A stretch of DNA of 64,000 nt from the NCBI GenBank assembly GCA_041652755.1, contig JBAZGS010000002.1, positions 24,516 to 88,515 on the forward strand, written 5' to 3'. This document shows positions 8,181 to 35,460 of this stretch, in pieces. A program made the translations under genes and the position numbers. How positions within the stretch are numbered: position 1 is the first letter of the stretch; each line of letters opens with the position of its first letter. The stretch comes from Candidatus Nanoarchaeia archaeon (GTDB taxonomy: Archaea > Nanobdellota > Nanobdellia > Tiddalikarchaeales > Tiddalikarchaeaceae). The notes beneath the pieces are model-generated. The model made no database searches, was not told the DNA's origin, and saw only the letters and a list, made by a program, of their open reading frames with translations.

Positions 8181-9434
8181 TTGCAAAATTTTTTACATTT
8201 TTCAGAGAAAAAAATTTATAATGAACTAATAAATAATTTTTTTATGAATAAATATTTTTTAATCCCCATTTTTTTTTTAATTTTTGTTTCAGGCTGCACA
8301 AATTTTAATGAAGGAATGAATAGAAGTGTAGAAAATGTAACTCAAGGAATAATAAATGAAATGAATGAAACTTTATCAAACATTTCTAATCAAATAAATG
8401 AGAGTTTAAATCAAGGATTGAATGATTCAATAAACAATTTTGTTTCAGGATTATTAAATATTACTAATAATGCTTTTTTAAAATCTCCAATTTCAACTTT
8501 TACTTTAGAGGATATAAATTATTTAGGAGTTAATTGCCAAGGCTCTGATTTAGAGATTGCTAATTGTATTAAAGATTGGCAAGAAAATAATATGATTTAT
8601 TTAGGTTTAATAGAAAGTTCAACTAATTATCCTGGTGCTGCAGATGCTATTCATTGGAACTATGCTATTCCAGGAATTTTTCCAACAAAAGAGGTTATAA
8701 GACAGAGAAGTGAAGGTAACAAACCCTATGGAGTTTGTTATGATTATGCAACAATTTATTGCAGTATTGCAGATTATTATGGACTATCTTGCAGGGTTGC
8801 AAATACTATTACTAAGCCTAGCCAAAGGCCCAATAGTGGCATTGAATTTACTACAGGATTAAGATATGAAGAATATGAAAGACTGAAAATCGAACTTGAC
8901 AAGCAAGGATTAGATTATGATTTTATACTAATGAATAAAGTATTAAGAGAAACTCCTGAACATTATTGGTCAGAAGTATTAATTGATGATGAATGGATTG
9001 TTATAGATGGCAGTGGAACTGATTCGCAAACACAATATAAAGATGCTAATGATTGGGAAGTAACTAATTGGACTAAACTTTACCTAGAAAGCAATATTAG
9101 TTATTATTTGGGATTTAAGGATGATTTAAACAACAGAATCAAGGTTTTTAATATTGATGATTATATGTTTTCTGCGCAATACTCTTTGGGATTGCCTGTG
9201 CCTTATTATAGTTCATGCACAAATGTTTGCGGATTTTTTGAAGGAAAGAATCCAATGTGCACATTTGAATGCCCTTTTTTAGCAAGCTTTTTCTCTTGCT
9301 ATGATTCTTGCTCAGGAAAAAAGTTTTACAAAATATGCGACTATGTCTGCAATGATGAAGAAGCAGGTTATGAAGAATGCTACCAGGAATGCAGCGGGGA
9401 AGAATTAGATATTGGTTGCTTTAATGATTGCTGA
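8181..9434 (+). CDS. secreted transglutaminase-like cysteine protease-fold protein with Cys-rich C-terminal tail
   Basis: N-terminal TM/signal with lipobox-like VSGCT. YGVCYDYATIYCS (Cys), HYWSEV (His) and DDEWIVIDGSG (Asp) fit a transglutaminase-like catalytic triad. The last 90 aa carry about 16 Cys. Confidence 0.5.
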   Translation: MQNFLHFSEKKIYNELINNFFMNKYFLIPIFFLIFVSGCTNFNEGMNRSVENVTQGIINEMNETLSNISNQINESLNQGLNDSINNFVSGLLNITNNAFLKSPISTFTLEDINYLGVNCQGSDLEIANCIKDWQENNMIYLGLIESSTNYPGAADAIHWNYAIPGIFPTKEVIRQRSEGNKPYGVCYDYATIYCSIADYYGLSCRVANTITKPSQRPNSGIEFTTGLRYEEYERLKIELDKQGLDYDFILMNKVLRETPEHYWSEVLIDDEWIVIDGSGTDSQTQYKDANDWEVTNWTKLYLESNISYYLGFKDDLNNRIKVFNIDDYMFSAQYSLGLPVPYYSSCTNVCGFFEGKNPMCTFECPFLASFFSCYDSCSGKKFYKICDYVCNDEEAGYEECYQECSGEELDIGCFNDC

Positions 9435-9436
9435 AA

Positions 9437-11485
9437 TTATTTTTTTACAAGTTTTGCTTTCTTAATTAAGTAATCATAATTATCTTTGTCTTTTATGATT
9501 TCAGAGTCCATTATTTTAATTTTTTTAGTAAATAGTGGGCTGTCAAGAACAATGGATTCGTATTCGCCGCCTTCTCCAGCAACATTAATTCCTAACTTAT
9601 TCCTTAAATCAACTAATTCACTGATTTCTTTTTGACTTATTGCTTTGCCTAATAATTTTTCATCTAAACCCATTGCAGCAGTTTTGACTAATATAAATTC
9701 AAAATGGTTCTGCAGCAGCTCTTTAAGTTCTAATTCCTGGTCTTTATGCCAAAGGGGTGAAAAAATTTTCAAGTTAAGCTCTTCGCAAAGCTCGAAAATC
9801 CTGCTTCTCTGGTAATTGCTGAATAATGCGCCAGTGATTATTCCATCCAAACAATACTTATCCCTTGCTTTTTTCAGCAGTTTTTTCAAATCTTTCAATT
9901 CCTCTTCCTTGATTCCAACAGTTTTTCCGAAAATTACAGGAACATTCAATGCAAAAGACTGAAGCTTAATAATTTCTTTATCAGCTTTCTGAAACATGTA
10001 ACTGTAATCTAGCTCATTAATCATTGTTATCAGGCAGGAAATATCATAGTTCTGCCTTTTCATAATAAACATTGCCAAGTTGCTGTCCTTTCCTCCGCTA
10101 TACAATGCACCTAACCTTAGATTAGGAATTTTTCTTATGGATTTAAGAAAATCAGACTTGCCAAGAAACTTTTTGCTTAAAATCTCAAGAATCTTGTCGC
10201 TTTTGCTTCCATACTGGGCAGCTAATTTTTTTTTGTTATAAATAATTTCATTAATCCCCAAATTCTCTGCAACGTTTCTAAGAATGATTTTTTTCTCAGA
10301 GTTATTAATTTTTAACTCAGCAGGTACGCTTAATCCAATATTAATCAAATCATAGTCTAGGAAAGGCAATCTTAATTCAATATTATGAAACATTGTCAAG
10401 CAATCATCCCTGTACAAATCCCTTTCATACAATTGCTTGAGTCCATAAATGCATTCTTCATTTATATTATTTGATTTTTCAAACCTTTTATATCCAGCGA
10501 ATACTTCTTCGCTCCCAAGCCCTGAAAATATAACCTTAACATTGTCTTCCTTTGCCAACTGGCAAGCATAAAAAAAAGGAATGCTAACTCCCACTTTTAC
10601 AGCATTACTGGATTCTATTATTTCGCAAATTTTAGGCAAATCTTTTCTGACATCGTTTTCATCAAAGTACTTGATTTTTAATTTGAATCCATGTAGATTT
10701 GCGGAATTATTTGCAGAAAAAGCGTCCTCGCTTTTCTTGCCCAAGGCTGCTGCAGTATAGCATGTGAATTCAGCACCTAGCATCTTTAATATGTAAGCTA
10801 TAAGTGTTGAATCAATACCTCCTGAGAATAGCACACCTATTTTTACCCCTTCAGGTATCCTTTTTTTAACTGATTCAACCAATGAGTTCTTGATGATTTC
10901 TTGCCAGTCATCTCTTTTGATTTCTTTGATTTTCAAAAAACCCAAGTATTCTAATTTCATTTTCTTAGTTTTTATGTCATAAATTATAATATTTCTGGGG
11001 TTAAGCTCAACAGCATAATCAATTCCCTGAGAAGTCAATGCTTTTTTTTCGCTTGCAAAGCAAAATTTTTTGTCATAAAACCATAACGGCTTTTCACCTA
11101 ACTTATCTCTGAACAAATAAACCTTTTTTTTGCTGATATAGCATGCAGCGTAAACTCCATCAAATTCATCAATCGCTTTCTTGAGTCCAATCTTTTTTAT
11201 GAGCTTAATCATTAAATCAGCGTCGTTCAAAACGCTTAAGTTATATTTTTTTGCCAATTTTAAATAATTATAAATTTCGCAGTTAGCAATTAACACATCA
11301 TTTTTGTAAATTATTGGCTGCTTGACGAATCCAACTACTGAATGCAGCAAATGCCCAATTGAATAATTCTTAGTTGACATTATGCTGAATCCATCAATGC
11401 CCCTGTAGCTGATTATTTTTGCAGCATTTTTCACAAAAATTTCATGGCCTTTAAAAAAGCATCCGAGTATTCCGCACATAATCAT
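9437..11485 (-). CDS. asparagine synthetase (glutamine-hydrolysing)-like protein fused to a C-terminal Dph6/MJ0570-like PP-loop ATP pyrophosphatase domain
   Basis: N-terminal MCGI Ntn-glutaminase start and AsnB PP-loop VLFSGGIDSTLIAY. The C-terminal roughly 220 aa carry a second PP-loop, ALYSGGKDSNLAMF...SYMFQ...LQSFALNVPVIF, matching the diphthine-ammonia ligase (DUF71) pattern. Confidence 0.65.
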   Translation of the reverse strand: MIMCGILGCFFKGHEIFVKNAAKIISYRGIDGFSIMSTKNYSIGHLLHSVVGFVKQPIIYKNDVLIANCEIYNYLKLAKKYNLSVLNDADLMIKLIKKIGLKKAIDEFDGVYAACYISKKKVYLFRDKLGEKPLWFYDKKFCFASEKKALTSQGIDYAVELNPRNIIIYDIKTKKMKLEYLGFLKIKEIKRDDWQEIIKNSLVESVKKRIPEGVKIGVLFSGGIDSTLIAYILKMLGAEFTCYTAAALGKKSEDAFSANNSANLHGFKLKIKYFDENDVRKDLPKICEIIESSNAVKVGVSIPFFYACQLAKEDNVKVIFSGLGSEEVFAGYKRFEKSNNINEECIYGLKQLYERDLYRDDCLTMFHNIELRLPFLDYDLINIGLSVPAELKINNSEKKIILRNVAENLGINEIIYNKKKLAAQYGSKSDKILEILSKKFLGKSDFLKSIRKIPNLRLGALYSGGKDSNLAMFIMKRQNYDISCLITMINELDYSYMFQKADKEIIKLQSFALNVPVIFGKTVGIKEEELKDLKKLLKKARDKYCLDGIITGALFSNYQRSRIFELCEELNLKIFSPLWHKDQELELKELLQNHFEFILVKTAAMGLDEKLLGKAISQKEISELVDLRNKLGINVAGEGGEYESIVLDSPLFTKKIKIMDSEIIKDKDNYDYLIKKAKLVKK

Positions 11486-11537
11486 ATGATAGGATTAATA
11501 ATATTTTAAAATAATCGATTCCTATTTTTACCTTGCA

Positions 11538-12092
11538 ATGGACAGTGAAATTGAAAAAAGGATGCTTGCAAAGCTTAAGGAGAATTTGGAAAAACCAAAA
11601 GAAGATGCTTTCGGAGATGATGACATTGTTGATAATTTAAGGGATGAATTCAAGCAAGAAGGGGGTTCTGTGAACTCTGAAACACCTAATACGTTCAGCA
11701 GCGAAGAATTAGGAGAGGATGAATTAGAAGATGAATTAATTGATGATGATTTCAAGAAGAATGATGAAGATTTTCTTGAAAGCGAAACAATAAATGATGA
11801 ACTATCTAGCTTAGCGGGAGAACAGGGCAATAATGAGCCAAAGCAAGCAACTGAAGAAAACAAAGAAAAACTTGAGCAAAAAACAAGTGATTCTAAAATA
11901 GAACAAGATTCTTTTTCAGTTAAACCTTCAAGCACCAGTATTCAAGCGCCTGCAAGTGAACCTAGCAAGGCTCCACTACCTAACCCTGTTGAGCAAAAGC
12001 CTATAAAAAAAAATTCAAGGGCAGGGTTGCTAATCTTTTTCATAATATTGGTTATAATAATGATTGCAGGAGTCTTTTATTTCATGTCATGA
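11538..12092 (+). CDS. acidic protein with single C-terminal TM anchor
   Basis: D/E-rich low-complexity N-terminal 150 aa and a C-terminal hydrophobic helix LLIFFIILVIIMIAGVFYF. Confidence 0.35.
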   Translation: MDSEIEKRMLAKLKENLEKPKEDAFGDDDIVDNLRDEFKQEGGSVNSETPNTFSSEELGEDELEDELIDDDFKKNDEDFLESETINDELSSLAGEQGNNEPKQATEENKEKLEQKTSDSKIEQDSFSVKPSSTSIQAPASEPSKAPLPNPVEQKPIKKNSRAGLLIFFIILVIIMIAGVFYFMS

Positions 12093-23013: not shown

Positions 23014-23073
23014 GATTTAATACTGCCAAGTGATAAAGTTTAAAAATACTATATTAGCTAATATATTATTAAT

Positions 23074-23145
23074 GCTCTGGTAGTCTAGTGGTTAGGACAT
23101 CAGCCTGTCACGCCGATAACCTGGGTTCGAATCCCAGCCAGGGCG
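23074..23145 (+). tRNA. tRNA-Asp (GTC)
   Basis: Acceptor GCTCTGG/CCAGGGC with one G-U pair, anticodon loop cTGTCAc, T-arm ctgggttcgaatcccag. Its 3' end is the attachment core of the adjacent element. Confidence 0.85.
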
Positions 23146-23197
23146 GGAATTCCATAGGTATCACTTAAGGTATGAACTAAAAAGAACAAATACTTAG

Positions 23198-24397
23198 GTG
23201 ATATACATGGATGAATTAGACATACATGACAGAAGAAAAAGATATGAAAAAACTGTCAAAAATATAGAAAAAGACAAAAATTTAACAACAAAAAATAAAG
23301 AATTTCTATTAAAATTAAAAGATGACTTATTTGCATTCGGCCTAAGTCTTGATAGGGTATTATTTTATCTGCATAGACTTAAAAGAATGGGCAAATGGCT
23401 TAACATGGATTTTGATAAAGCAACAATTGATGATCTAAAAAGATTAATTGTTGAACATGTTGAGAATGGAAGAGTTCCATCAACAGGAAAATCTTACACA
23501 GAAAATACTAAGAGAGATTTCAAACGATCCTTAAAGAGTTTTTACAAATGGATAGCAGAAATTCCATGGACAGAAATGAATTATCCAGACAAAGTCAAAT
23601 GGATTAACATAGGATTAAAACAATGCAAAGCAAGACTTCCGGATGACTTACTCTCAAAAGAAGATATAAACAAAATGATTGCTCATTCAGGAAATTTAAG
23701 AGACAAAGCAATGATTTCAACACTTTATGAAGGAGGTTTTAGAATAGGAGAATTATTAAATATTAAACTTAGGGATTTAAGCTTCACAGAATATGGAGTA
23801 AAAGTTATTGTTTCAGGAAAAACAGGAATGAGAACAGACTTATTAATAAATTCAACACAACTGCTTGCAACATGGATAGAAAATCATCCACTAAGAGACA
23901 AAAGAGACAGTTATTTATGGATTACTATGTCAACAAACAACAAAGGCAAAGGAATGAAATATGGAGGAGTAGCCAAGAGATTTAAAGAGATTGCAAAATT
24001 ATCAGAAATACAGAAAGATGTTAATCCTCATAACTTTCGACACAGCAGAGCATCAGAGTTAGCAAATAAATTAACAGAAGCTCAAATGTGCAACTATTTT
24101 GGATGGAGATTAGGCAGTAAAATGCCAGCAATCTATGTTCATCTCTCAGGAAGAGACATTGACGATGCCATTTTGAAGATGCATGGCTTAAAAAAGCATG
24201 AAGAAGAGCTGGAATTCACAGAAATCAAATGCCCAAGATGTAATCAAAAAAACAACTCAGCAAGCAAATACTGCTCATACTGTGGACTACTCGTTGATGA
24301 AAAAGAGGCCATAACAATGGTAAAAGTAGGAAATGACATGATACCTTACTCAGCAATCCAAGAAATGATAAAAGCAGAGATACAAAGAATGAAATAA
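23198..24397 (+). CDS. int: tyrosine recombinase/integrase
   Basis: Catalytic signature R...HNFRHS...Y (IYVHLS) and a C-terminal Zn ribbon CPRCN...CSYC. Confidence 0.85.
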   Translation: MIYMDELDIHDRRKRYEKTVKNIEKDKNLTTKNKEFLLKLKDDLFAFGLSLDRVLFYLHRLKRMGKWLNMDFDKATIDDLKRLIVEHVENGRVPSTGKSYTENTKRDFKRSLKSFYKWIAEIPWTEMNYPDKVKWINIGLKQCKARLPDDLLSKEDINKMIAHSGNLRDKAMISTLYEGGFRIGELLNIKLRDLSFTEYGVKVIVSGKTGMRTDLLINSTQLLATWIENHPLRDKRDSYLWITMSTNNKGKGMKYGGVAKRFKEIAKLSEIQKDVNPHNFRHSRASELANKLTEAQMCNYFGWRLGSKMPAIYVHLSGRDIDDAILKMHGLKKHEEELEFTEIKCPRCNQKNNSASKYCSYCGLLVDEKEAITMVKVGNDMIPYSAIQEMIKAEIQRMK

Positions 24398-24404
24398 TTT
24401 AATT

Positions 24405-25637
24405 TTATTCTAATGAATCAAATCTTATTTTTTCATATTTTTCTATTATTATATCTAATAATTCCTCAGGTGAATTAATATTGTCTAATTCTTTTTTTAA
24501 TATTTCAATAATTGAAATATTAACATGATGAAATGCTTTAATTTTAGTTAATTTACATATTTTTCCAAGATCCCCAGTTGTTCCTTCAACAGAAAATATA
24601 ATTCCAAATTTACAATTATGAAAAATTAATTTAGTTAAAAAATGATTTAATTGGCTAGAATTAACTTTTTCAGTTGTATTTTTGCATTCGCATAAAACAT
24701 ATTCTCCAAATAAATTTTTAAATGGATAAATTAGATTATTTCTAAAAGCTATATCTATTTGATACTCTTTTAATATATTATCACTAGGTCCGACATTTAT
24801 ATTTTTAATAACATTTATTTGATCCAAAGTACTTAATAAATAAGTACAACAATCTTCAAATCTTAATCCTTTTTCATTATTATCTTTTGAATTTTTAATC
24901 CAATTAGAAAAAATATTCAATAAATTTTTATTAAAACTATTTAAAAAACTAAATTTATTTTTTTCTTTTGAATAAAAATAAATAAAACTTTCTGGAAAAT
25001 AAATAAAATCTTTTAAACTATCATAATTTTTCCTAACAAATGAAACAATTTCATCTAATTTTTCTTGAGAAAAAAATTCTGTTTTAAGAACTAAATATGC
25101 TTTTCCCATATAACAAGTGGATATTTTTTTTTCTATTTCACTAACAATATCTTCAATAAATGCAAATAAAGTGTATTGTTTCAATTTTTCAACATTATTC
25201 TTTTTTCTATAAATCCAACCTAATTGATGTAATATAAGTCCTTTATGAATTCTTTCTTTCTTTTCTAATTCATAATCATTTAAAAATTTATAAATATCTT
25301 TATATGCATATTCTGCTAATAATAAAAATTCTGCTGATTTAAATTCATTATATAACATAAAATAAAAGTATCCAATAGTATTTGAAAGAATTAATATTTC
25401 TTTAGTCTCTTTTATTTCCTTTAATAAAGCAATAAAAGAATGAAAATAATCATAAGAATTATTTGCTTTTGCACAAGTTTCAATTAGTCTTTTCCCCTCA
25501 ACTGAATAATCTTTTGTAATTTCATTTAATTCTTTATCTAACTTATCTTTTAATCCTTGAGGAATAATTCCTTCATAATTATTTTTTTCAATAACATATT
25601 TCATCAATAATTTTGCTATTCCAAATTCATCAACCAT
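24405..25637 (-). CDS. Mrr-like PD-(D/E)xK nuclease domain protein with uncharacterised alpha-helical N-terminal region
   Basis: C-terminal RFEDCC ... QIDIAF ... GEYVLCECK ... FGIIFSVEG fits the Mrr_cat E/D/ExK core. The N-terminal roughly 270 aa have no recognised motif. Confidence 0.45.
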   Translation of the reverse strand: MVDEFGIAKLLMKYVIEKNNYEGIIPQGLKDKLDKELNEITKDYSVEGKRLIETCAKANNSYDYFHSFIALLKEIKETKEILILSNTIGYFYFMLYNEFKSAEFLLLAEYAYKDIYKFLNDYELEKKERIHKGLILHQLGWIYRKKNNVEKLKQYTLFAFIEDIVSEIEKKISTCYMGKAYLVLKTEFFSQEKLDEIVSFVRKNYDSLKDFIYFPESFIYFYSKEKNKFSFLNSFNKNLLNIFSNWIKNSKDNNEKGLRFEDCCTYLLSTLDQINVIKNINVGPSDNILKEYQIDIAFRNNLIYPFKNLFGEYVLCECKNTTEKVNSSQLNHFLTKLIFHNCKFGIIFSVEGTTGDLGKICKLTKIKAFHHVNISIIEILKKELDNINSPEELLDIIIEKYEKIRFDSLE

Positions 25638-25729
25638 TAAAATTTAAATAATTTTTAACTATAAAAATATACCTTATTTAATAAAATTTCATAGACTGAA
25701 AAATATATTATTTTATTGATGTTTTTTCT

Positions 25730-26263
25730 TTAATAATCATTTTTTTTTACAAAAGAATCAAACATAATTAAATCAATATTAATATCTTTAAAGAATAAAT
25801 CAAAAAAATAATTAGCTTCTTTTTTTATTTCTTTATTACCTATTTTTGTAAAAAGCCATAAATATTTTGGAAAAGCATCAAATAAATATTTTAATCCTTC
25901 TTCATAAGGTAATCCATCTCTAGTTTTATATTTTAAATAAAAAACTTTATCTGATTCCTTTTTCTCAATTATTTTTTTTAAAAAAATTTCTGCAATAGGT
26001 ATTAATTTATCCCATTTTTTTATAATATTTAGTTTAATACATTTGCTTATAAATCCATTATAATTTATTTCATAAGTTATTGGTTTTCCATCATTTTTCT
26101 TAATTAATCCTTTTTTAGTCAAAATTCTTAATTCTTTATTAATATTATCTATATCTCTATTTCTTATTTTTTTTAATTCTAATGCAGATAAAGGTTTATG
26201 AATTAATTCAATAAAATCATTAAAATATTCTTTACTTCTATAAGGATATTTTACTTCTTCCAT
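25730..26263 (-). CDS. winged-helix domain protein
   Basis: LSALELKKIRNRDIDNINKELRILTKKGLIKK...ITYEIN is a wHTH pattern. Lies upstream of, and co-oriented with, the Mrr-like gene. Confidence 0.35.
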   Translation of the reverse strand: MEEVKYPYRSKEYFNDFIELIHKPLSALELKKIRNRDIDNINKELRILTKKGLIKKNDGKPITYEINYNGFISKCIKLNIIKKWDKLIPIAEIFLKKIIEKKESDKVFYLKYKTRDGLPYEEGLKYLFDAFPKYLWLFTKIGNKEIKKEANYFFDLFFKDINIDLIMFDSFVKKNDY

Positions 26264-26316
26264 AGGTAATTTTATACCCCAAAATAATATATAAAAATGT
26301 TGATTTTTGATTATTT

Positions 26317-26475
26317 ATGACAATTATTACAAAGAATATTTGTTTAGATGAAGATTTATTTAATAAATCAAAACAAATATGTAAAAGTACAGGACGAACA
26401 TTTTCTGGATTCGTGAGATTCCTTATTGAGAGGGAAATGGAAAAAGATGAAGGGAGTGGGAATAATGGAAATTAA
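26317..26475 (+). CDS. ribbon-helix-helix (CopG-like) protein, 52 aa
   Basis: Hand-translated MTIITKNICLDEDLFNKSKQICKSTGRTFSGFVRFLIEREMEK, with the RHH pattern of beta-strand, then helix, GR, then helix. Confidence 0.4.
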   Translation: MTIITKNICLDEDLFNKSKQICKSTGRTFSGFVRFLIEREMEKDEGSGNNGN

Positions 26476-26573
26476 ATCTTCTTTTAAAAACTGGTCTGAT
26501 TTAATGGATTTTGTTAAGTTAGAAGCCAAAGAGCAATTAATTAAACAAATTAAGAAAAAAGAGGTTAAATCTA

Positions 26574-26792
26574 ATGATGACAAAGGCACAAATTGATTTT
26601 GAATCTTGTAATTTTAGGGATGAATTAATCCTTTTTTTAATTAAACAAATGAATTGTGCAAGTCTTGAAACTTTAACTATTGTATCAGGGATTACTAAAG
26701 AAAAATTAACCAAAGTAATAAAAAGATTACAACAAAGAAAATTAATCAAAATTGCTACAACAATTAGAACAAATTATTATGGGGTGGTATAA
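26574..26792 (+). CDS. winged-helix DNA-binding protein
   Basis: ASLETLTIVSGITKEKLTKVIKRLQQRKLIKI is an HTH plus wing pattern. Confidence 0.4.
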   Translation: MMTKAQIDFESCNFRDELILFLIKQMNCASLETLTIVSGITKEKLTKVIKRLQQRKLIKIATTIRTNYYGVV

Positions 26793-27311
26793 ATGAATGA
26801 ATCAGATGAATTAATAAATAAAAAATTAGATTTAATTTTACAAAAAGTAATCAATATAGAAGAAAAACAAAGTTTGCGCATTAATGATACTAAAAAACAA
26901 CAATGTGAATTAATTAAAGAAAAACTTGAAGAAAATTCGGTTATTTCAAGTAATGGAATAAGTGATTTATTTAATTTTACTTATGCAGAGTATACTTATA
27001 GGTTAATTAAAACGTTTTCTAAACTTTATCCTAAAATATGTAAACTTATAAATGGAAAAAAAGGAAAAAATCCAAATATTATCCTAAATAAAAAGTCAAA
27101 TATATACTTAGCACTTAATTATCTTTATTCCAATTGTCCAAAAATTAATGATTACTTTAGTTTAAAGACTATTGAAATGCAATTCAATTTTAAATCTAAT
27201 GATTTAACTGTGTTTAAAGAAATCTTATTTCATTATCTTATTGATGAATGGAAATGTGGAGAAGATAATCATATAATTGTGCGTAAAAAAATAATAAGTG
27301 AAGTGTTTTAA
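26793..27311 (+). CDS. hypothetical protein
   Basis: 172-aa ORF with a start overlapping the upstream stop (taaATG). Confidence 0.3.
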   Translation: MNESDELINKKLDLILQKVINIEEKQSLRINDTKKQQCELIKEKLEENSVISSNGISDLFNFTYAEYTYRLIKTFSKLYPKICKLINGKKGKNPNIILNKKSNIYLALNYLYSNCPKINDYFSLKTIEMQFNFKSNDLTVFKEILFHYLIDEWKCGEDNHIIVRKKIISEVF

Positions 27312-27550
27312 TAAATATTATTAACAAAAGAGTTACAAATTATATTTTTTTTTTAATGCTCCCAATTATTAATAATAAATATTAACAGTATTGTTGTTTA
27401 TTTATTGTATTTTATTATTATATTATATATAATATATTTGTAACTTAATTGTTATAATATTAGTTTAACATAAACAAACAAAATTTAATTAAATTTATTA
27501 AAAAAATGCTGCTAAAATAGAAAGAAACGACAGACAAAAATCCAGTATAA

Positions 27551-27645
27551 GCAAGAGAGTAAGCAAGAGAAAATTAATAATCATAGCTCGAGGCATAGCC
27601 CGAGAAATTGTCCATAGCGAGAGCCATAGCATGAGAAAATGATTT
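27551..27645. repeat. cluster of short direct repeats (2x gcaagaga; 4x CATAGC-N-GAG units) in a 387-bp AT-rich intergenic region
   Basis: gcaagaga at 27551 and 27563. catagc at 27582, 27594, 27613 and 27625, each followed by (c/t)cgag or gagag. Confidence 0.5.
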
Positions 27646-27698
27646 TTTTTTTATCAAATATATTTGAGAAATAATATATTAAATAATCATATGCAACA

Positions 27699-28172
27699 TT
27701 ATTTATAATATCTTAATTTTATATTATAAGTTATTGTATTTGGAATTTCAAATAACAAATCTATATCTTCTGATTCTAAAGGTTGTAAATAATCTGAAAA
27801 TACATCTGAATAGCCGTTTAATACATATTTTGAGTAATCATTTTGACTAATCCAGTCATTATTTATACAATCATATATATTTCCATGATCATCTAATAAC
27901 TTAAATTTATCTGAGTTAATATATTTTGAGGTTTTTCCTATATTTTTTATAGTAATTTCAACAATCGCAACATTTTGTTTTATACTATTAGAATAATATT
28001 TATTTAATACTGTTCCTGTGGGTGAAGCTGTTGAAGATTCTAAACGAATGGATAAATTATTTAATTCTTGTGTTTCTAAAGGAGAAATATCAATATATTT
28101 TTTTGAATCCGAATCTGATACTAATCCAATTAAAATTATAATTACAACTATCCAAAAAATACTAATTTTCAT
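27699..28172 (-). CDS. secreted/membrane-anchored protein (DUF4352-like fold suspected)
   Basis: N-terminal TM/signal MKISIFWIVVIIILIGLVS, then a beta-rich domain. Confidence 0.3.
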   Translation of the reverse strand: MKISIFWIVVIIILIGLVSDSDSKKYIDISPLETQELNNLSIRLESSTASPTGTVLNKYYSNSIKQNVAIVEITIKNIGKTSKYINSDKFKLLDDHGNIYDCINNDWISQNDYSKYVLNGYSDVFSDYLQPLESEDIDLLFEIPNTITYNIKLRYYK

Positions 28173-28238
28173 TATTTTAACGCCTCTTTAACGTATTCTT
28201 AACCTATTCAAATAAAAACAACACGTTTTAAAAACGTT

Positions 28239-28490
28239 ATGGATTGGTTAAAATTAGGTAAAGTTAAAGGAAGTAAAAATAAGAAAATAATAATTAATGC
28301 TTTAAACAAGCCAAAAACACCAACAGAACTATCCCAAGAGCTAAAAATAGCAAGATCAACATGCAGTAGCACACTTTTAGAACTTGAAACAATGCAATTA
28401 GTTAAATGCTTAACCCCAGAACTAAAACTAGGAAGATTATACCAACTAACAGAAGAAGGAGAAGAAATAAAGAAAGAAATTAAATTATAA
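28239..28490 (+). CDS. winged-helix transcriptional regulator (ArsR/MarR-like)
   Basis: TPTELSQELKIARSTCSSTLLELETMQLVK. Sits directly upstream of the three-gene operon. Confidence 0.45.
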   Translation: MDWLKLGKVKGSKNKKIIINALNKPKTPTELSQELKIARSTCSSTLLELETMQLVKCLTPELKLGRLYQLTEEGEEIKKEIKL

Positions 28491-28532
28491 TGTTAACCTT
28501 TTAAACTTATAACTTTTAATATTATACTAAAC

Positions 28533-29639
28533 ATGTTATCTAAAAAAAATAAAAAATTGAATCCTCAAAAAAAAGGAAAAAAAGGTGAAAATAATTCAAT
28601 TAAAGCTTTAAAAGTATTATTTGAACAATTTTCTAGAATTAGTTCAATAAGAAAATATGAATCTGGTTTTCAGGGAGGAAAAGATATTAAAACATTTGCT
28701 TTTTTCAAAAAAAATAATTTTTTAGGTATTGTTGGAGATAAAAATTTAAAATGGTTTTTTGAAGTTAAACATTATGAAAGTAAATTAAATCCAGAAAAAG
28801 TTGTTTATAAAATTCATCAAGTTAAAGCTTCTAATTTAGAAATTGATTGTTTTTGTTTATTTTCTCCTAAAGAAGATATTCATGGTATATTGGAAGATAG
28901 TTTATCAGAAAAAAAAGTGTTAGATAATCCTGAATATCCATTTAAAATTGTATTATGGACTCCCTCTCAAAATATTAAAAGTAAATTATCTTGTTTTCCT
29001 GAAGTATATAAGGAAATTTATGATGAAGAAAGTAATATTTCAGATGATGATAAAAAAGAAATATTAAATAATTGGATCGAAGAAATTTATAAACAAACAG
29101 AAGAAGGAAAAAAAATACGTGAAGATTTTGTTACTAAATTTAAAGGAATAAATCCTATTTGGATTCCTGAAAGTATAAATTATGCACAAAATATAATTAT
29201 TGATGATGAAGGTCAAAAAACATTTTCTGAAAAACAATCAATATTAGAACAAAAACTTCGTATGGGAGGTATAAATGAATACCAAGATATTCTTAAAGCA
29301 AAAAGAAATAGAATATTAAGTGAAGGAATAAGAAGAAAATATAAAAAATCGGATGAAATTATTTTTATGGAATTGACCTCTATTAAATATGAATTAGAAA
29401 ATTTTTGTCTTGATTTAGAAAAAAATATTTTAGAAAAAGAATCAACTAATGAAGCAAGATTATTTTTAATAGAATTTTTTAATAAACTTGAAGAATTTAA
29501 ACAAAAATGTAAAAACAAAGAAATAATAGAAAAATTACCTAATTATTACTTTGATGGACAAATGTATGAAATAACTTCAGAATGCTTATTAAGTTTATCA
29601 AAAAAATGGTTAAAAGAAATAAAAGGTATATTAAAATGA
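28533..29639 (+). CDS. PD-(D/E)xK nuclease-domain protein (LmuA/DdmA-like candidate effector)
   Basis: N-terminal KALKVLFEQF ... GIVGD ... FFEVKHY, the E / D / ExK arrangement. The stop overlaps the next gene's ATG (ATGA). Confidence 0.45.
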   Translation: MLSKKNKKLNPQKKGKKGENNSIKALKVLFEQFSRISSIRKYESGFQGGKDIKTFAFFKKNNFLGIVGDKNLKWFFEVKHYESKLNPEKVVYKIHQVKASNLEIDCFCLFSPKEDIHGILEDSLSEKKVLDNPEYPFKIVLWTPSQNIKSKLSCFPEVYKEIYDEESNISDDDKKEILNNWIEEIYKQTEEGKKIREDFVTKFKGINPIWIPESINYAQNIIIDDEGQKTFSEKQSILEQKLRMGGINEYQDILKAKRNRILSEGIRRKYKKSDEIIFMELTSIKYELENFCLDLEKNILEKESTNEARLFLIEFFNKLEEFKQKCKNKEIIEKLPNYYFDGQMYEITSECLLSLSKKWLKEIKGILK

Positions 29640-30127
29640 AAGAAATTGATAATACTAAATTTTTAGAACTTGCTCAAATGATTTTATTATTAGGAAATTC
29701 ACAAAAAAATATAATTTATGAAAAACATAAATTCATGACTTTTTTATTTTTTATTAAAAATCCACTTTATTTAGGTAAATTATGTGAAAAAATACATCCG
29801 GAATTCTCAAAAAATATTCATTTAAATCATACTGAAGAATATAACTTATTATATGATATTGAAAGAATAAGTGTTTGGAATAGTAAAAATGATTTAAACA
29901 TTGCATATCTATTAGGTAAAGGATTAGTGAATGTTGAATTAACTGATAAAGGATATTCTTTTTCTTTAACCTTAGAGGGGTTAAAATTATTTAAATCATT
30001 AAAAAATGATAAATCTATGCAAATAGAAAATATTAGATCTAAAATTATAAACAATATTTTTAAAAAAGAATCTTTTAATGAAATAAAAGGTATAATAATT
30101 GATAATTTTAAGGAGTTAAATCTATGA
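29636..30127 (+). CDS. small alpha-helical protein (LmuC/DdmB-like position), 163 aa from the coupled ATG
   Basis: ATGA overlaps at both ends (29636-29639 and 30124-30127). No motif recognised. The ORF track's earlier start at 29582 is probably not used. Confidence 0.35.
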   Translation: MKEIDNTKFLELAQMILLLGNSQKNIIYEKHKFMTFLFFIKNPLYLGKLCEKIHPEFSKNIHLNHTEEYNLLYDIERISVWNSKNDLNIAYLLGKGLVNVELTDKGYSFSLTLEGLKLFKSLKNDKSMQIENIRSKIINNIFKKESFNEIKGIIIDNFKELNL

Positions 30128-32052
30128 ATAAAAATCCTTATATTCAAATAAAAAGATTAAAAGTGGAAGGTTTACATAAATTTGATAAATCTTTTAAAAA
30201 AGGTTTACATATTTTAGTTGGTAATAATAACTCTTGTGGAAAAAGTTTGTTTATTAAATTAATTGATTTTGCTTTAGGTGATGATGGTAATGATTTAAAG
30301 GAGTATGGTATTTTAAAAGATTGTTCTTTTTTTTATGCAGAATTAGAGGTAAATAATGAAACTTTAACAATAAAAAGAAATTTATATATTATTGATTCAA
30401 CAATTGAATTATTTTATAATAAAACTATTCAAGAAATATTAACTTCATCAATTATACCAGAATCTATATCTTACTCTGATTATCAAAAATTATTATTTAA
30501 AAAATTAACAAATTTTGATTATATTCCTACTATTAGTTCAAAAGGTAAAAAAGTTAGTATAGGTTTTCCTCATTTTTCAAATCTTTTTTATTTAAATCAA
30601 GGAGTAGCAGCAGGCCAATTATTTAGGTATAGTGATATTTATTTTCCAAATTATTTGAAAAAAAAAGTATTAAGTCTTTTCTTGAATACAAATGAAATAA
30701 AAAAATCATCTGATGAAATTGAATTAGGTAATTTAAAAGAACAAGTTAAAAATTCTATTGACCAATTAAATACAAAAAGATCTTTTTTTAATTCAAAATT
30801 TAATATAGATAATTATTTTGCTGAAATTGAAAATAAAAATAATATATTAAAAGAAATTGACACTTTAAAAGATAATTTAAATAATATAAATCAAGAGGCT
30901 TTAATTCAAATTGATTTACCTGTTCAAGAAAAAGATACTTTATATTTTTTAAAGAAAAGATTAGAGGAAATAAATAATTTAATATTTAATTGTAATACTA
31001 ATATTAAACAAACAACTAAGATATTAAATGATTATTCAGAAGAAATTTCTAAAACTGAAAAAAATATAACTTCATTTAATTTAATGAAAAAATTTGATAT
31101 ATCTATTTGTCCTGAATGCAATAAAAAAATAATTAAACAACTTAATAATAATTGTCCATTATGTAAAGAAAAATTAGATGAGGAAAAATCATTAAATAAT
31201 TATTTTGATAATAATATGAAATATTTAAGTTATTTAAAAGGTGCACTAAAAGATTCTGTTGATGTTATAAATAATGATAAAGAAAATGTAAATAAATTAA
31301 TAAAAGAAAGAGAAGAATTAATTAATGAAATAAATATTAAAGAAAAAAAATTAAATGATTTTATTAAAACAAATAAATTACCTATTTTAGATAAAATTTC
31401 TGAATTAAGTTATGAAATTTCAAAAAGAGAAGAAAAATTGAATTTTATAAATAAAAATATTGAAATATTAGAATCTTTCAAACATGAAGACGAAAGAATT
31501 GAAGATTTAAAAAACAAAATTAAAATTTTAAACAATAAAATTAAAGAGATAGAATCCGATTTAATTAATAAAAGTAGAGAAGAAAAGTTATTATCTATTT
31601 TAAATAATAATTTTAATTCTTTTTTTAATAATATTAATTATCCTTCATTTGAAAAAGCAAATTTGAATGAAAATTTTGATATAACTATTACTAACAATAG
31701 AGATGGTATCCAAAATTTAAATAAAATTACTTCCTCAAGTAATAGAATAATAATAAGATTAGGTTTATTTTATTCATTATTAAAAACTTCTTTAGAAAAT
31801 GATAATATAAATTATCCAAAGTTAATTTATTTAGATTCACCTAGAGATCAAGAATTAACTTGGGAGAGATTTAGTAATTCATTATTGTCTTTTAAAAGAT
31901 TATTAGACAATTCTGACGTTGAAGGTCAAGTATTTATTACTGTAGTAGAAGATGCTAAAAATGTTTTTGAAGGAGAATATGAATCTCTAAATGATAATGT
32001 ATTTATGAGAATTGAAGATAAATCTAATTTAAGATTATTAAGAAAAAATTAA
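30124..32052 (+). CDS. SMC/Rad50-like coiled-coil ABC ATPase (LmuB/DdmC-like)
   Basis: N-terminal LHILVGNNNSCGKSLFIKLIDFALG (Walker A in Rad50/RecF-type context), a roughly 400-aa N/K/E-rich predicted coiled coil, a central CPECN-x12-CPLCK knuckle and C-terminal KLIYLDSPRDQEL Walker B/D-loop. aaggag RBS lies 8 nt upstream. Confidence 0.55.
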   Translation: MNKNPYIQIKRLKVEGLHKFDKSFKKGLHILVGNNNSCGKSLFIKLIDFALGDDGNDLKEYGILKDCSFFYAELEVNNETLTIKRNLYIIDSTIELFYNKTIQEILTSSIIPESISYSDYQKLLFKKLTNFDYIPTISSKGKKVSIGFPHFSNLFYLNQGVAAGQLFRYSDIYFPNYLKKKVLSLFLNTNEIKKSSDEIELGNLKEQVKNSIDQLNTKRSFFNSKFNIDNYFAEIENKNNILKEIDTLKDNLNNINQEALIQIDLPVQEKDTLYFLKKRLEEINNLIFNCNTNIKQTTKILNDYSEEISKTEKNITSFNLMKKFDISICPECNKKIIKQLNNNCPLCKEKLDEEKSLNNYFDNNMKYLSYLKGALKDSVDVINNDKENVNKLIKEREELINEINIKEKKLNDFIKTNKLPILDKISELSYEISKREEKLNFINKNIEILESFKHEDERIEDLKNKIKILNNKIKEIESDLINKSREEKLLSILNNNFNSFFNNINYPSFEKANLNENFDITITNNRDGIQNLNKITSSSNRIIIRLGLFYSLLKTSLENDNINYPKLIYLDSPRDQELTWERFSNSLLSFKRLLDNSDVEGQVFITVVEDAKNVFEGEYESLNDNVFMRIEDKSNLRLLRKN

Positions 32053-32070
32053 TTTATTTTTAAAAGACGT

Positions 32071-32712
32071 TTATTTCCAATAAATTATACAAAATAAAAT
32101 TGATAAAATTAAAACAAAAATACTTATTTTTATCTTATTTTTAAATCTAAATTTTTTATTCTTTCCAAAAGTTATAAATGAAATAGATTTTAAGTAAAAA
32201 TAATTAATTAATATAGACATACTCATAAAAATTGAAATACTTCCTAATGAACTACTAATTTCTTTTGAAACAAAAAATAAAGTATAAATTGTATTTATCA
32301 ATGAAAAAATTAATACTAAAATTTCTATAAAAAATATAAAATTTAACCAATTTCCTAAATAAAATTCTTTTTTTGACTTATTGATTTCTCTTTGAATTAT
32401 ATAAGGAAAAAAAGTATATATAATAAGCGCAATTATTCCATATCCAAAACTAGTTATTAATTCTCCTGGTGGGGGATTATTAAATAATATAAAATTTATA
32501 ATATTTATACTAAATAGGAGTGGAACTATAAGACAAAATAAAGCTAAGAATATTAAGAGTAAGTTTCCAGATTCTTTTAAATTTTTAATTGTAACATATT
32601 TACCTTTCTTAAAAAATAGAATATACATAAAATAAGTATAAATTGCCAGAAATAAAAATATGTTAGTGTTGGGTAAAAAATTTAAAATTATTGATATAAT
32701 ATCTATACTCAT
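32071..32712 (-). CDS. polytopic membrane protein
   Basis: 6-7 TM segments; convergent with the operon and inside the element. Confidence 0.35.
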   Translation of the reverse strand: MSIDIISIILNFLPNTNIFLFLAIYTYFMYILFFKKGKYVTIKNLKESGNLLLIFLALFCLIVPLLFSINIINFILFNNPPPGELITSFGYGIIALIIYTFFPYIIQREINKSKKEFYLGNWLNFIFFIEILVLIFSLINTIYTLFFVSKEISSSLGSISIFMSMSILINYFYLKSISFITFGKNKKFRFKNKIKISIFVLILSILFCIIYWK

Positions 32713-32872
32713 ATTTGATTTAATTCACCTTTGACTAAAAAATATTTGTATTTTTTATGTATATTTTAAATATAATACTTATTAAGTAATTTTTTAAATC
32801 ATGTGCTCATTGTTTATATTAAGTTTAATGCTTAAGTAATACCCTAGAACCCAAATCCCAGCCAGGGCGCAC

Positions 32873-33715
32873 TTATTCTTTTTGTTTCCAATGATTGATT
32901 GCCTCAATATTGGTTCTGTAATAGTCTATTATTATGCCTTTTTTGAGCTCTTCATTACAGTCAATAAGCTTTTTCTGCTCAAAAGATGGTTCTAAGGTTC
33001 CAGTGTTTATGAAAATTCTCCTGTTAATCTCCCTATCTTTCCTGCCAAATCTCTTATATTTAAACACGTTGTCAAAGTAATCTTTTTCATCAGTGGTTTT
33101 TACGTAATACTTATTTTTGTTATCCATATTTAGCACCATCTCTTCGTCAAATAATTTTCCAATGAACATTAATTTATGAGTCCAATTCTGTGTTGGCAGT
33201 ATTGAAAGAAGCTCATTTCCTCTTTTTTTGCTGCTTTTGTCTGAATCATCATGAAATGAATTCGGCACAAATTCGTTATAAACGCTTTCTCCAGATAGGA
33301 GCACTTTTTTAAGCTTGGCATCTGAAGCGTTCAATGAGTCATAGATTGTCCTGAGCATGCACCAGTCAAGTTTTCCTCCTGTGAATATGAAAGAATCTTC
33401 ATGCTTAATCGAATCTTTTACTTCTTTTGGCAATACTCCTGAAATTGAGAACTCAAGATTGTAATTTTTCAGTTCCCTAAACTTTTTATTGCCTGTTATG
33501 ACATTTTCTTGCCCAAATTTTGTCAGGTCTTTGCTGTAAACATCGTTTATGCTGCCGTTTTTTTCCCTATAAACATCATAGATTAATCCGTCTTTGCAGC
33601 AGTCGCTCAGCTCAACAGTGCGACTAATTGGCAATTCATTTCCTAAATTTATCGGTCCCCAACCATTTCCCTCAACGTAATTCTTGTTGTAATGGGTTAT
33701 GAACATCACAGTCAT
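32873..33715 (-). CDS. hypothetical protein
   Basis: 280-aa ORF abutting attR on the chromosomal side. Confidence 0.3.
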   Translation of the reverse strand: MTVMFITHYNKNYVEGNGWGPINLGNELPISRTVELSDCCKDGLIYDVYREKNGSINDVYSKDLTKFGQENVITGNKKFRELKNYNLEFSISGVLPKEVKDSIKHEDSFIFTGGKLDWCMLRTIYDSLNASDAKLKKVLLSGESVYNEFVPNSFHDDSDKSSKKRGNELLSILPTQNWTHKLMFIGKLFDEEMVLNMDNKNKYYVKTTDEKDYFDNVFKYKRFGRKDREINRRIFINTGTLEPSFEQKKLIDCNEELKKGIIIDYYRTNIEAINHWKQKE

Positions 33716-34041
33716 AAAAATACAATTGAAACAATTCTATTTAAATAATTAATTACTTCCTTAAAAAAAAACTGATTAATTGAAGGATTAAAAAAAATCA
33801 TTTCTTCTGTCAATTATTTTAAAATTTTCACTTTCAATCATTTTAATTACTTATTATTAACTTATGGGCTTATAAAAATATTATTTTGAACTTACTAACT
33901 ATTGTTTTTTTATATAATCCTGAACTTTTGATTTAATATTCAACTAAAACAGTTTTTTCTTTTTGTCACTGAAAAGTTAACCTTATATTTTAAAAAATAG
34001 TGGGGAATATGAAAAATCATGAATGAGGTGTTTTTGAAAAA

Positions 34042-35460
34042 ATGAGTGAAGTATTAATGCAAAACGCATTTAAATCTTATGAAGCAATAGCTAAACAGGC
34101 ATTAGAAAATAATTATGTCCTTAAAGGATGTTTTTTTCCAGAGCTTGGAGAGTTTTACAGAGGCAAAGTTGCTGACAATCACATGAAAGGAAACAAGTTG
34201 TACAGCTTTAGGACTGACAGGATTTCCGCATTTGATTACGTGCTAAAAAGGCAGCAAATTCCTTTCAAAGGAGCAGCGCAAATAGGAATGACTTATCATG
34301 CCTTGAAAAAGACAAATGTTCCGCATGCAATGATTGACAGGCCAGACCCTAATGTTTTAGTCTATAAAGAATGCAAACCTTTTCCAGTGGAAGCAATTGT
34401 TAGGGGCTATTTAACCGGCAGTTTCTTTAAAAATTATTATTCAAAAGGCAAGCCTAATCCTTGGAATTTAAAGGTTCCTAATGGGCTAAAAGAGTTTGAT
34501 GCATTTCCAGAGCCATTATTTACTCCAACAACAAAGGAGGATTCGGGGCATGATTTGGATATTCCTGAAAATGAAATAATTGAAAAAGGATATGCCACAA
34601 AAGAGCAGCTTAAGCAGGTCAAAGAGTACAGCTTCCAGCTTTTTAAGGAAGGCACAGAAACTGCTGCAGCGCAGAATTTTATACTAGTTGACACTAAGTA
34701 TGAGTTCGGAATCGATGAAAATGGAAACGTTGTAGTAATTGATGAAATCCACACACTTGATTCGTCAAGATTCTGGTACAAAAAAGACTATGATGAGAAT
34801 GTAGCAAAAGGAAAATCTCCCTACTCATGGTCTAAGCAGGTTGACAGGGACATCTTCTCATCAAAAGGGGATGTTGAATCATTCGGCTGCCTGCCAAGAT
34901 TAACCTTGGATGAAATAATCAAGACTTCAGTGATTTACATGCAGATGCATAAAGGAATAACAGGGCAAGACTTAATTTATAACCCAGCCAAAAATCAAAG
35001 CATTGAGGAAAGAATCCTTGAAAACATGGTATCAAAAGGCTATGCCAAAGGAGGATGCGCAATAATTATGGCTGCAAGCAAAATTGACCAGCCTCATTAC
35101 AGCAAAATCGCTGATGAACTGACAAATTTGAATGTTCCATGCTTTATTTCAGAGCCTCTTTCAGCGCATAAAGAAACGCAAAAAGTGCTTGATAAAGTTG
35201 AGCTATACAATACAAGTGTTGAGCCAATAGTATACATCAATGTTGCAGGAGGAAGCAACGGGTTAGGTCCTATAATTTCAGGAAAGATAGCGAAAGACAA
35301 GAAATCTTTCACCAATATTGCATGCCCAGTGTTTGCTGACAAGTCAACAATGCAAATGGATGCATGGTCAAGCTTGAACATGCCTTCAGACATAGCAATG
35401 CCTGTAATATTGCGCCCAAGAAATGCAGCGCTTGAAGCAAAAAATCAGCTGAAATTATAA
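34042..35460 (+). CDS. purCE: bifunctional SAICAR synthetase (PurC) / AIR carboxylase (PurE) fusion (PAICS-like)
   Basis: N-terminal FYRGKV...TDRISAFD (SAICAR synthetase). C-terminal IIMAASKID...SAHK...VAGGSNGLGPIISG...PV...MP pattern of PurE. Confidence 0.7.
   Translation: MSEVLMQNAFKSYEAIAKQALENNYVLKGCFFPELGEFYRGKVADNHMKGNKLYSFRTDRISAFDYVLKRQQIPFKGAAQIGMTYHALKKTNVPHAMIDRPDPNVLVYKECKPFPVEAIVRGYLTGSFFKNYYSKGKPNPWNLKVPNGLKEFDAFPEPLFTPTTKEDSGHDLDIPENEIIEKGYATKEQLKQVKEYSFQLFKEGTETAAAQNFILVDTKYEFGIDENGNVVVIDEIHTLDSSRFWYKKDYDENVAKGKSPYSWSKQVDRDIFSSKGDVESFGCLPRLTLDEIIKTSVIYMQMHKGITGQDLIYNPAKNQSIEERILENMVSKGYAKGGCAIIMAASKIDQPHYSKIADELTNLNVPCFISEPLSAHKETQKVLDKVELYNTSVEPIVYINVAGGSNGLGPIISGKIAKDKKSFTNIACPVFADKSTMQMDAWSSLNMPSDIAMPVILRPRNAALEAKNQLKL

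Follow-up and report, generated by a model that had tools for sequence, protein, structure and literature searches.

The fused gene and its distribution

The DNA analysed here is a 64,000-nt stretch (the window) of contig JBAZGS010000002.1, from the low-GC (~31%) genome of a Candidatus Nanoarchaeia archaeon (assembly GCA_041652755.1). Its subject is one minus-strand gene that joins a class-II (Ntn) glutaminase domain, a PP-loop (ATP pyrophosphatase) domain of the asparagine synthetase B (AsnB) type and a diphthine--ammonia ligase domain (Dph6, also called DUF71) in a single polypeptide. Dph6 catalyses the final reaction in the synthesis of diphthamide on elongation factor 2 (EF-2). This modification of EF-2 is conserved in both archaea and eukaryotes; diphtheria toxin targets it, and it helps to keep translation accurate.

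The gene lies in one uninterrupted open reading frame (ORF) listed at 9437..11485 on the minus strand (682 aa). The upstream in-frame ATG at 11485 adds only Met-Ile at the N-terminus, so that the sequence MCGI occupies residues 3-6 of the 682-aa frame. For residue comparisons, two sets were aligned separately with E. coli AsnB, one of 119 fused homologues and one of 80 proteins derived from genomes (199 members in total). An MCG start was found in all 119 homologues, and the true start is therefore most likely the ATG at 11479, giving a protein of 680 aa. After removal of the initiator methionine, the cysteine would most likely be the N-terminal residue. The original prediction had placed MCGI, SGGIDS, SGGKDS and SYMFQ on a single 682-aa polypeptide, and all four motifs were found at verified coordinates. 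The main features, in window coordinates, are as follows.

9437..11479, minus strand: three-module coding sequence of 680 aa, stop codon at 9437-9439, translation verified
11474..11476, minus strand: Cys codon, N-terminal nucleophile of the class-II (Ntn) glutaminase domain, aligned with Cys1 of E. coli AsnB
10925..11479, minus strand: class-II glutamine amidotransferase (GATase) domain, residues 1-185 (Pfam GATase_7/GATase_6; E. coli AsnB alignment)
10145..10912, minus strand: AsnB-type PP-loop (ATP pyrophosphatase) domain, residues 190-445 (Pfam Asn_synthase; Foldseek; residue table)
10808..10825, minus strand: first PP-loop motif SGGIDS, equivalent to AsnB 234-239 (alignment)
10517..10519, minus strand: codon of Leu321, which aligns with AsnB catalytic Glu348 (human Glu364); motif FSGLGSEE (alignment)
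10136..10159, minus strand: linker with the sequence KSDFLKSI, in the family K..YL..F/L (alignment of the C-termini of fused and stand-alone forms)
9440..10111, minus strand: Dph6 domain (diphthine--ammonia ligase, DUF71/PF01902), residues 457-680 (PF01902, TIGR03679 and structure match)
10082..10099, minus strand: second PP-loop motif SGGKDS, in the Dph6 domain (motif near-universal in the family)
9989..10003, minus strand: SYMFQ motif (motif location)
9557..9577, minus strand: GEGGEYE motif of the Dph6 domain, equivalent to PF0828 E183/E186/E188, a predicted EF-2 interface (PF0828 alignment)

A Pfam search supports the three-module architecture that had been read from the sequence, with GATase_7 at residues 55-151 (9e-17), Asn_synthase at residues 199-338 plus a second stretch (2e-45), and Diphthami_syn_2 at the C-terminus. 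An AlphaFold2 model of the whole 680-residue chain, built from a 118-sequence alignment, has a mean local confidence (pLDDT) of 94.2 and a predicted template modelling score (pTM) of 0.92. This high chain-wide confidence predicts that the three modules are fixed relative to each other as one rigid body. A Foldseek search matched no solved structure that spans all three modules.

The architecture is not new. De Crécy-Lagard et al. (2012, Biol Direct 7:32; PMC3541065) described proteins with a class-II glutamine amidotransferase (GAT-II) domain, an Asn_synthase PP-loop and DUF71 in Methanohalophilus mahii, Methanosalsum zhilinae and 'Ca. Nanosalinarum', and suggested that both PP-loop domains receive ammonia from the GAT-II domain. 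The fusion and the ammonia-supply idea are thus already known from that paper, and the architecture also appears in the routine annotation of the NCBI pipeline PGAP. A 2018 survey of archaeal dph genes makes no mention of the fusion. The original prediction had doubted that this was a standard form; that doubt did not survive, since the architecture is published and is widespread in archaea. In a search of 5.8 billion proteins, at least 120 full-length homologues were present among the matches listed (~673-741 aa, 46-93% identity, the same Pfam set). NCBI names these listed homologues diphthine--ammonia ligase (Woesearchaeota, Nanoarchaeota, Nanoarchaeia), and the top match among them is a protein at 93% identity from a metagenome-assembled genome of Nanoarchaeia.

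With one genome taken per GTDB species, at least 429 species-level relatives were found among the first 600 pattern matches, and the best 80 of these, full- or near-full-length, make up the 80 loci discussed below. They include the DPANN groups Woesearchaeota, Nanoarchaeota, Iainarchaeota, Micrarchaeota, Altiarchaeota and Nanohaloarchaea; the Methanosarcinales, among them the isolate Methanolobus bombayensis DSM 7082, Methanomethylovorans, Methanohalophilus and ANME-3 (anaerobic methanotrophic archaea, group 3); and Methanophagales (ANME-1) and Syntrophoarchaeum. The complete chromosome of Nanosalina sp. VS9-1 carries the fusion. Matches in tblastn span residues 1-680 in Methanolobus (loci L034, L036, L038), 1-648 in Nanosalina (L062, L076) and 108-680 in Methanohalophilus (L079), and the relatives from these three genera all fall in one tree with the window protein. 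Compared with the fusions of 2012, the window protein has the identical module order and invites the same ammonia-supply hypothesis, but it comes from a DPANN/Nanoarchaeia-like lineage. It is 42% identical to the Methanolobus bombayensis protein (L034) over residues 1-680.

This distribution bears directly on the possibility that the fusion is an artefact, created by an assembly chimera or a lost stop codon. Gene calls in this family can indeed mislead, since some metagenomic proteins that appear to be stand-alone forms are truncated fusions (P0124, P0302). The same uninterrupted architecture nevertheless recurs in more than 120 independent proteins and in 80 species genomes, isolates included. 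With more than 200 full-length copies, an assembly or frameshift artefact is effectively excluded. We give this explanation, together with the idea that the C-terminus is simply a part of AsnB (see below), a negligible probability.

The Dph6 module

The C-terminal module is a complete, canonical Dph6. Diphthami_syn_2 (PF01902) covers residues 459-678 at profile positions 4-218 of 219 (8e-58, 196 bits against a cutoff of 23.2), and the NCBIfam model TIGR03679 (Dph6_archaeal) is matched over positions 2-218 of 218 with 239.9 bits, above its equivalog cutoff of 197.3. The closest solved structures by sequence, in a phmmer search, are PH1257 (1.4e-47) and PF0828 (1.1e-45). Foldseek superposes the modelled domain on PF0828/PH1257 (3rk1, 2d13) with TM scores of 0.94-0.96 and root-mean-square deviations of 1.3-1.5 Å. 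Nine residues of PF0828 had been identified as specific to Dph6 orthologs, namely S44, Y45, E78, Y103, Q104, A149, E183, E186 and E188 (PMC3541065), and all nine are identical in the window protein when it is aligned by phmmer to PF0828 (3rjz). The motifs S.GKDS, SYM, YQR and EGGExE are near-universal across the fused family at the 80 genome loci. The original prediction of an independent PP-loop domain of the Dph6/MJ0570 type in the last ~220 aa is therefore upheld.

The module resembles the stand-alone archaeal Dph6 proteins PF0828, PH1257 and MJ0570 in its fold and in the motifs SGGKDS, SYM, YQR and EGGExE, with 33-38% identity in the Foldseek comparison. Those proteins, however, are single domains of ~220 aa that presumably use free ammonia, whereas the Dph6 of the window protein forms the C-terminal 224 aa of a 680-aa chain. 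The notion that this part is the normal C-terminal region of AsnB was considered and is ruled out by the TIGR03679 score, by the superposition on Dph6 crystal structures and by the fact that nothing in E. coli AsnB aligns with it.

A different concern is that DUF71 is not monofunctional and includes a second, B12-salvage-associated subfamily (PMC3541065), in which case the C-terminal module would have no link to diphthamide. Apart from the diversity of the family, this explanation can draw on the absence of visible dph2 or dph5 neighbours. We consider it very improbable in view of the nine conserved Dph6 residues, the TIGR03679 score and the scores obtained with the PAB0415 and TTX_0299 family models (61.7 and 48.2), which are far under the cutoff of 250. 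In addition, the complete genomes of M. mahii and M. zhilinae each hold one DUF71 homologue (Table S1 of PMC3541065), which makes the fused protein the only candidate Dph6 in those two organisms, and archaeal dph genes are generally unclustered (PMC3541065). No second copy of Dph6 or AsnB was found in the 64-kb window, nor within ±8 kb at the 80 related loci.

The AsnB-like domain and a proposed supply of ammonia

The N-terminal half of the protein is derived from the AsnB family. The nearest solved structures by sequence are human asparagine synthetase (ASNS) and E. coli AsnB, and Foldseek aligns residues 1 to ~445 with ASNS/AsnB at TM scores of 0.76-0.79, and also with beta-lactam synthetase, CarA and TsnB9. 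The window protein shares with E. coli AsnB (1CT9) and human ASNS (6GQ3) the two-domain fold, Cys1, Asn74, Glu76, Asp98, SGGxDS, D279, G347, K429, K449 and the interdomain Glu. Within the fused family, the PP-loop residues S, G, G, D and S are invariant in 119/119 homologues, and SGGxDS is present at 77 of the 80 genome loci. Residues Asp279, Gly347, Tyr357, Asp384, Arg387, Lys429 and Lys449 (AsnB numbering) are invariant or nearly so, the equivalent of the essential Lys449 being K420 in the numbering of the 682-aa frame.

Other residues of the AsnB active site have been replaced. Glu348 is Leu in 118/119 homologues and is Glu at none of the 80 genome loci; Arg325 is replaced by Gly and is never Arg among the 199 members. 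The changes Thr322 to Val, Lys376 to Gly and Asp351 to Glu are mostly fixed across the family. Relative to AsnB and ASNS, the window protein thus carries R49L, G75C, T322V, R325G, E348L, D351E and K376G, and the final ~100 residues of AsnB are missing from its AsnB-like module. In human ASNS, the mutants E364A, E364Q and D367A (E. coli E348 and D351) are inactive, and Lys466 (K449) is essential (Zhu et al. 2019, PMC6748925). Furthermore, the protein misses both AsnB equivalog cutoffs, scoring 238.9 against 267.1 for TIGR01536 and 201.9 against 499 for NF006949. Judged from these alignments, the ATP/pyrophosphate machinery appears to be strongly selected, and the residues specific for aspartate (formation of beta-aspartyl-AMP) appear to be gone. 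The middle domain would then be a non-canonical member of the family and not an asparagine synthetase. The label of asparagine synthetase in the original prediction is not supported, as the protein falls below both cutoffs and lacks Glu348 and Arg325, which are required for asparagine synthesis. Annotations of this AsnB-like subfamily as asparagine synthase in DPANN reconstructions are probably unreliable.

These residues also bear on the most conventional alternative, a bifunctional enzyme in which a divergent but working glutamine-dependent asparagine synthetase is joined to Dph6, with the fusion serving co-expression or the sharing of one glutaminase. In Pfam, NCBIfam and the PDB alike, residues 1-445 match asparagine synthetases best; Cys1, the PP-loop, D384, R387, K429 and K449 are kept; and an acidic pair, E351/E352 in AsnB numbering, is still in the pocket. 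Modules of this kind also occur free-standing, as expected of an autonomous enzyme, and the 2012 proposal itself had the GAT-II domain feeding both PP-loop domains (PMC3541065). We nonetheless judge such an enzyme unlikely, given the missed cutoffs, the absence of Glu348 from all 199 members, the replacement of Arg325, Thr322 and Lys376 along with Leu in place of Arg49, the inactivity of the human mutants at the Glu348 position (PMC6748925) and the loss of AsnB's C-terminal ~100 residues. Several lineages without a glutaminase, moreover, still keep the PP-loop domain fused to Dph6.

The altered pocket does not look like one in decay. Across the 80 loci, positions 348/351/376/384 co-vary as sets, L-E-G-D, S-D-D-N or L-D-L/Y-D, with L-E-G-D in the window protein and S-D-D-N in Methanolobus, which suggests a binding pocket that has been maintained and retuned. 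There is precedent in CarA, beta-lactam synthetase and TsnB9, which have the AsnB two-domain fold, an intact PP-loop and an altered Glu348 position; in the alignment CarA has Tyr there (GYGSD, compared with GLGSE in the window protein). These enzymes differ from the window protein in that their N-terminal domain is inactive and lacks Cys1, in that they belong to bacterial secondary metabolism, and in their low identity to it (14-18%).

The glutaminase domain of the window protein retains its Cys1 nucleophile and most of the residues of the glutamine site. Cys1, Asn74, Glu76 and Asp98 (E. coli AsnB numbering) are invariant in the 119 close homologues, which supports glutaminase competence and with it the ammonia-supply idea. 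Cys1 is kept at most of the 80 genome loci, and the ELRLPFLD motif always has its interdomain Glu; what these residues do is described in PMC6748925. The three modules have mean pairwise identities of 0.43, 0.46 and 0.52, and all three are under similar constraint.

Our preferred explanation is that the protein is the organism's Dph6 fused to an AsnB-derived amidotransferase that supplies it with glutamine-derived ammonia, and that the middle PP-loop domain is not an asparagine synthetase; we think this is probably correct. Glutamine would be hydrolysed at Cys1 and the ammonia passed inward, making the reaction glutamine-dependent instead of free-ammonia-dependent. In the Dph6 domain, following the chemistry of the family, ATP would adenylate the carboxylate of diphthine and ammonia would attack to form the amide. 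The middle PP-loop domain might act as an ATP-dependent ammonia relay, or might amidate a second carboxylate. Channelling of ammonia from glutamine is plausible in such an arrangement. Yeast Dph6 (YLR143w) offers a parallel, being fused to a proposed ammonia-generating module as well (PMC3541065), but its partner consists of two C-terminal RidA/YjgF imine deaminase domains, unrelated to the N-terminal AsnB-like module described here. Among the genomic hints that some archaea use glutamine for the Dph6 step, fusion to a glutamine amidotransferase is the strongest; it was already published in 2012, and the window therefore adds only one more member, from a DPANN archaeon.

Several observations weigh against simple channelling of glutamine-derived ammonia. 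The AsnB-type glutamine-recognition network is incomplete. In human ASNS it comprises Arg48, Asn74, Gly75, Glu76 and Asp96 (PMC6748925), whereas here Asn74, Glu76 and Asp98 are kept and Arg49 and Gly75 are replaced. Gly75 is Cys in 115/119 homologues, the window protein included. Arg49, which binds the alpha-carboxylate of glutamine, is Leu45 in the window protein, Leu in 119/119 homologues and never Arg at the 80 loci; with Leu in every member, glutamine use is not assured. Some relatives have no glutaminase at all and consist only of the AsnB-like PP-loop and Dph6 (482-523 aa), and in a set of ANME-1-like proteins Cys1 is replaced by Tyr, Thr or Ser:

L072, 4636-6207: glutaminase-less relative, internal to its contig
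L073, 4462-5910: glutaminase-less relative, internal to its contig
L078, 7971-9473: glutaminase-less relative, internal to its contig
L080, 4247-5728: glutaminase-less relative, internal to its contig
L060, 854-3013; L063, 108-2282; L064, 199-2334; L066, 112-2289: fusions without Cys1, with starts MYR, MTR or MSR

No glutaminase remnants were found upstream of the first four genes. The last four, labelled ANME-1/Methanophagales or Halobacteria, keep the N-terminal domain with Asn74 changed to Asp and Asp98 to Ser, and their glutaminase is probably inactive. Loss or inactivation of the glutaminase falls at three or more separate positions in a neighbour-joining tree, one of them sister to the clade of the window protein; this is a quick distance tree that carries no support values, and at least three independent losses are to be taken as indicative only. 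Repeated loss or inactivation of the glutaminase argues that the conserved core does not depend on ammonia from glutamine. The genomic surroundings also count against the amidotransferase explanation: no dph2, dph5 or EF-2 gene was seen in the 64-kb window, and clustering of the ORFs around the 80 loci gave no conserved operon with these genes. A search of the later literature found no experimental test of the fusion for any fused member. Finally, the AsnB-like module occurs free-standing with no adjacent dph6, and its function need not involve Dph6.

The free-standing forms came from a HMMER search with the N-terminal 445 aa, which gave 584 clusters at E<=1e-30, the best 150 of which were classified. 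This set contains 45 complete fusions, 58 proteins of ~440-500 aa with the glutaminase and the AsnB-like PP-loop only, and 13 of ~260-300 aa with the PP-loop domain alone, the remainder being incomplete (partial or truncated) or combining domains in other ways. The stand-alone forms carry the same L49/L348/E351/G376 signature (AsnB numbering) and never have Glu348, and the clean examples end directly behind the K..YL..L motif, which in the fusions forms the linker in front of Dph6. The same signature in free-standing members argues that the N-terminal half represents a distinct AsnB-like subfamily with an autonomous function. Three of them were located in Woesearchaeota-type contigs:

L082, 6001-7419: stand-alone AsnB-like gene (P0274)
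L087, 3694-5172: stand-alone AsnB-like gene (P0295)
L084, 6001-7392: stand-alone AsnB-like gene (P0332)

All three are internal genes with unrelated neighbours, and no frame within ±5-6 kb of them encodes a dph6. Common to L082 and L087 is the gene order phosphoglucomutase/phosphomannomutase (PGM/PMM), AsnB-like gene, class-I aminoacyl-tRNA synthetase. NCBI names one of the three proteins asparagine synthetase B, a name that its residues do not support.

Three further candidates, P0123, P0294 and P0302, were dropped as clean stand-alone genes, as they end 2-21 bp from a contig end; P0302, moreover, continues into Dph6, and the tail of P0294 is aberrant. Stops of apparent stand-alone AsnB-like genes near contig ends were seen at L085 (7407/7428), L086 (6401/6419) and L089 (3369/3371), which suggests assembly breaks or strain heterogeneity exactly at the fusion junction.

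The losses of the glutaminase are among the arguments for a diphthamide synthetase with a double PP-loop, whose AsnB-like domain would, for example, bind or adenylate the EF-2 side chain, or gate Dph6 by ATP, the glutaminase being optional. The constant unit at the 80 loci is the AsnB-like PP-loop plus Dph6, a pair that is kept wherever the glutaminase is deleted or Cys1 is lost, and the first PP-loop and the residues of its ATP site are invariant even in the glutaminase-less forms. The co-varying pocket sets, the confidently rigid model and the existence of AsnB-family enzymes with substrates other than aspartate point the same way. A number of facts nevertheless make this a rather unlikely explanation. 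Most archaea have a stand-alone Dph6 of ~220 aa, and diphthine has a single carboxylate. Yeast Dph6, which has no AsnB-like domain, reportedly suffices for the amidation step (Su et al. 2012, PNAS; Uthman et al. 2013). The stand-alone AsnB-like genes, moreover, do not adjoin dph6, and any contact with EF-2 is hypothetical.

A broader version of the same thought may be entertained as a tentative possibility, well short of an even chance. The AsnB-like PP-loop would be a second competent ATP pyrophosphatase that forms an obligate core with Dph6, acting on the diphthine side chain or gating ammonia or ATP, with the glutaminase dispensable; the free-standing L49/L348 members would then be an unrecognised archaeal amidoligase family, possibly a partner of Dph6 that acts in trans. 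A reviewer of the 2012 paper had raised the question of which of the two PP-loops consumes the ammonia and what task falls to the AsnB-like one (PMC3541065). The present data narrow that question, in that the second PP-loop is apparently not used for canonical asparagine synthesis, is kept when the glutaminase is absent and also occurs free-standing. The 2012 paper contains no analysis of catalytic residues, glutaminase loss or stand-alone forms, and what is new here is the replaced catalytic residues, the recurrent loss of the glutaminase and the stand-alone forms of the AsnB-like subfamily. The residual interest lies in the role of the AsnB-like PP-loop domain.

Neighbouring genes and other features of the window

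The surroundings of the fused gene vary from genome to genome. No neighbour conserved across the 80 loci was found, and what recurs around them is limited to antisense shadow ORFs and unrelated housekeeping genes (CTP_transf_like, MscS, peptidase U32, M24, NucS, RNase HII and others). Other genes in the window include those for topoisomerase VI (Topo VI), a RIO kinase, POR subunits and cysteinyl-tRNA synthetase (CysRS).

On the downstream side, a convergent gene at 8181-9434 (plus strand) ends 2 bp from the stop codon of the fusion gene. In its 417-aa product, a membrane or signal segment at the N-terminus is followed by a core resembling transglutaminases (PF01841, 9e-07) and, at the C-terminus, by a tail rich in Cys. 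On the other side, an ORF at 11538..12092 (plus strand) encodes an acidic low-complexity protein of 184 aa with a C-terminal transmembrane helix. A Ser-rich ORF of 135 aa that overlaps it at 11528..11935 (minus strand) is most likely a shadow ORF.

Further along, a tRNA-Asp gene at 23073-23146 (plus strand) is followed by a tyrosine integrase ORF at 23198..24397 (PF00589, 1.7e-21). Over the ~9 kb after the integrase the GC content is 18-25%, compared with ~31%, and there are large ORFs with no Pfam match, for example one of 642 aa at 30124..32052. The region 23073-33800 has the appearance of a mobile element or provirus that has integrated at a tRNA gene.

Two more fused genes occur in the window. 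A 472-aa ORF at 34042-35460 (plus strand) combines SAICAR synthetase (PurC, 1.5e-57) with AIR carboxylase (PurE, 3e-14) in the domain order of the animal bifunctional enzyme PAICS. A 639-aa ORF at 41953-43872 (plus strand) combines the catalytic domain of dihydroorotate dehydrogenase with a DHOD-B electron-transfer Fe-S domain and is apparently a fusion of the PyrD-PyrK type.

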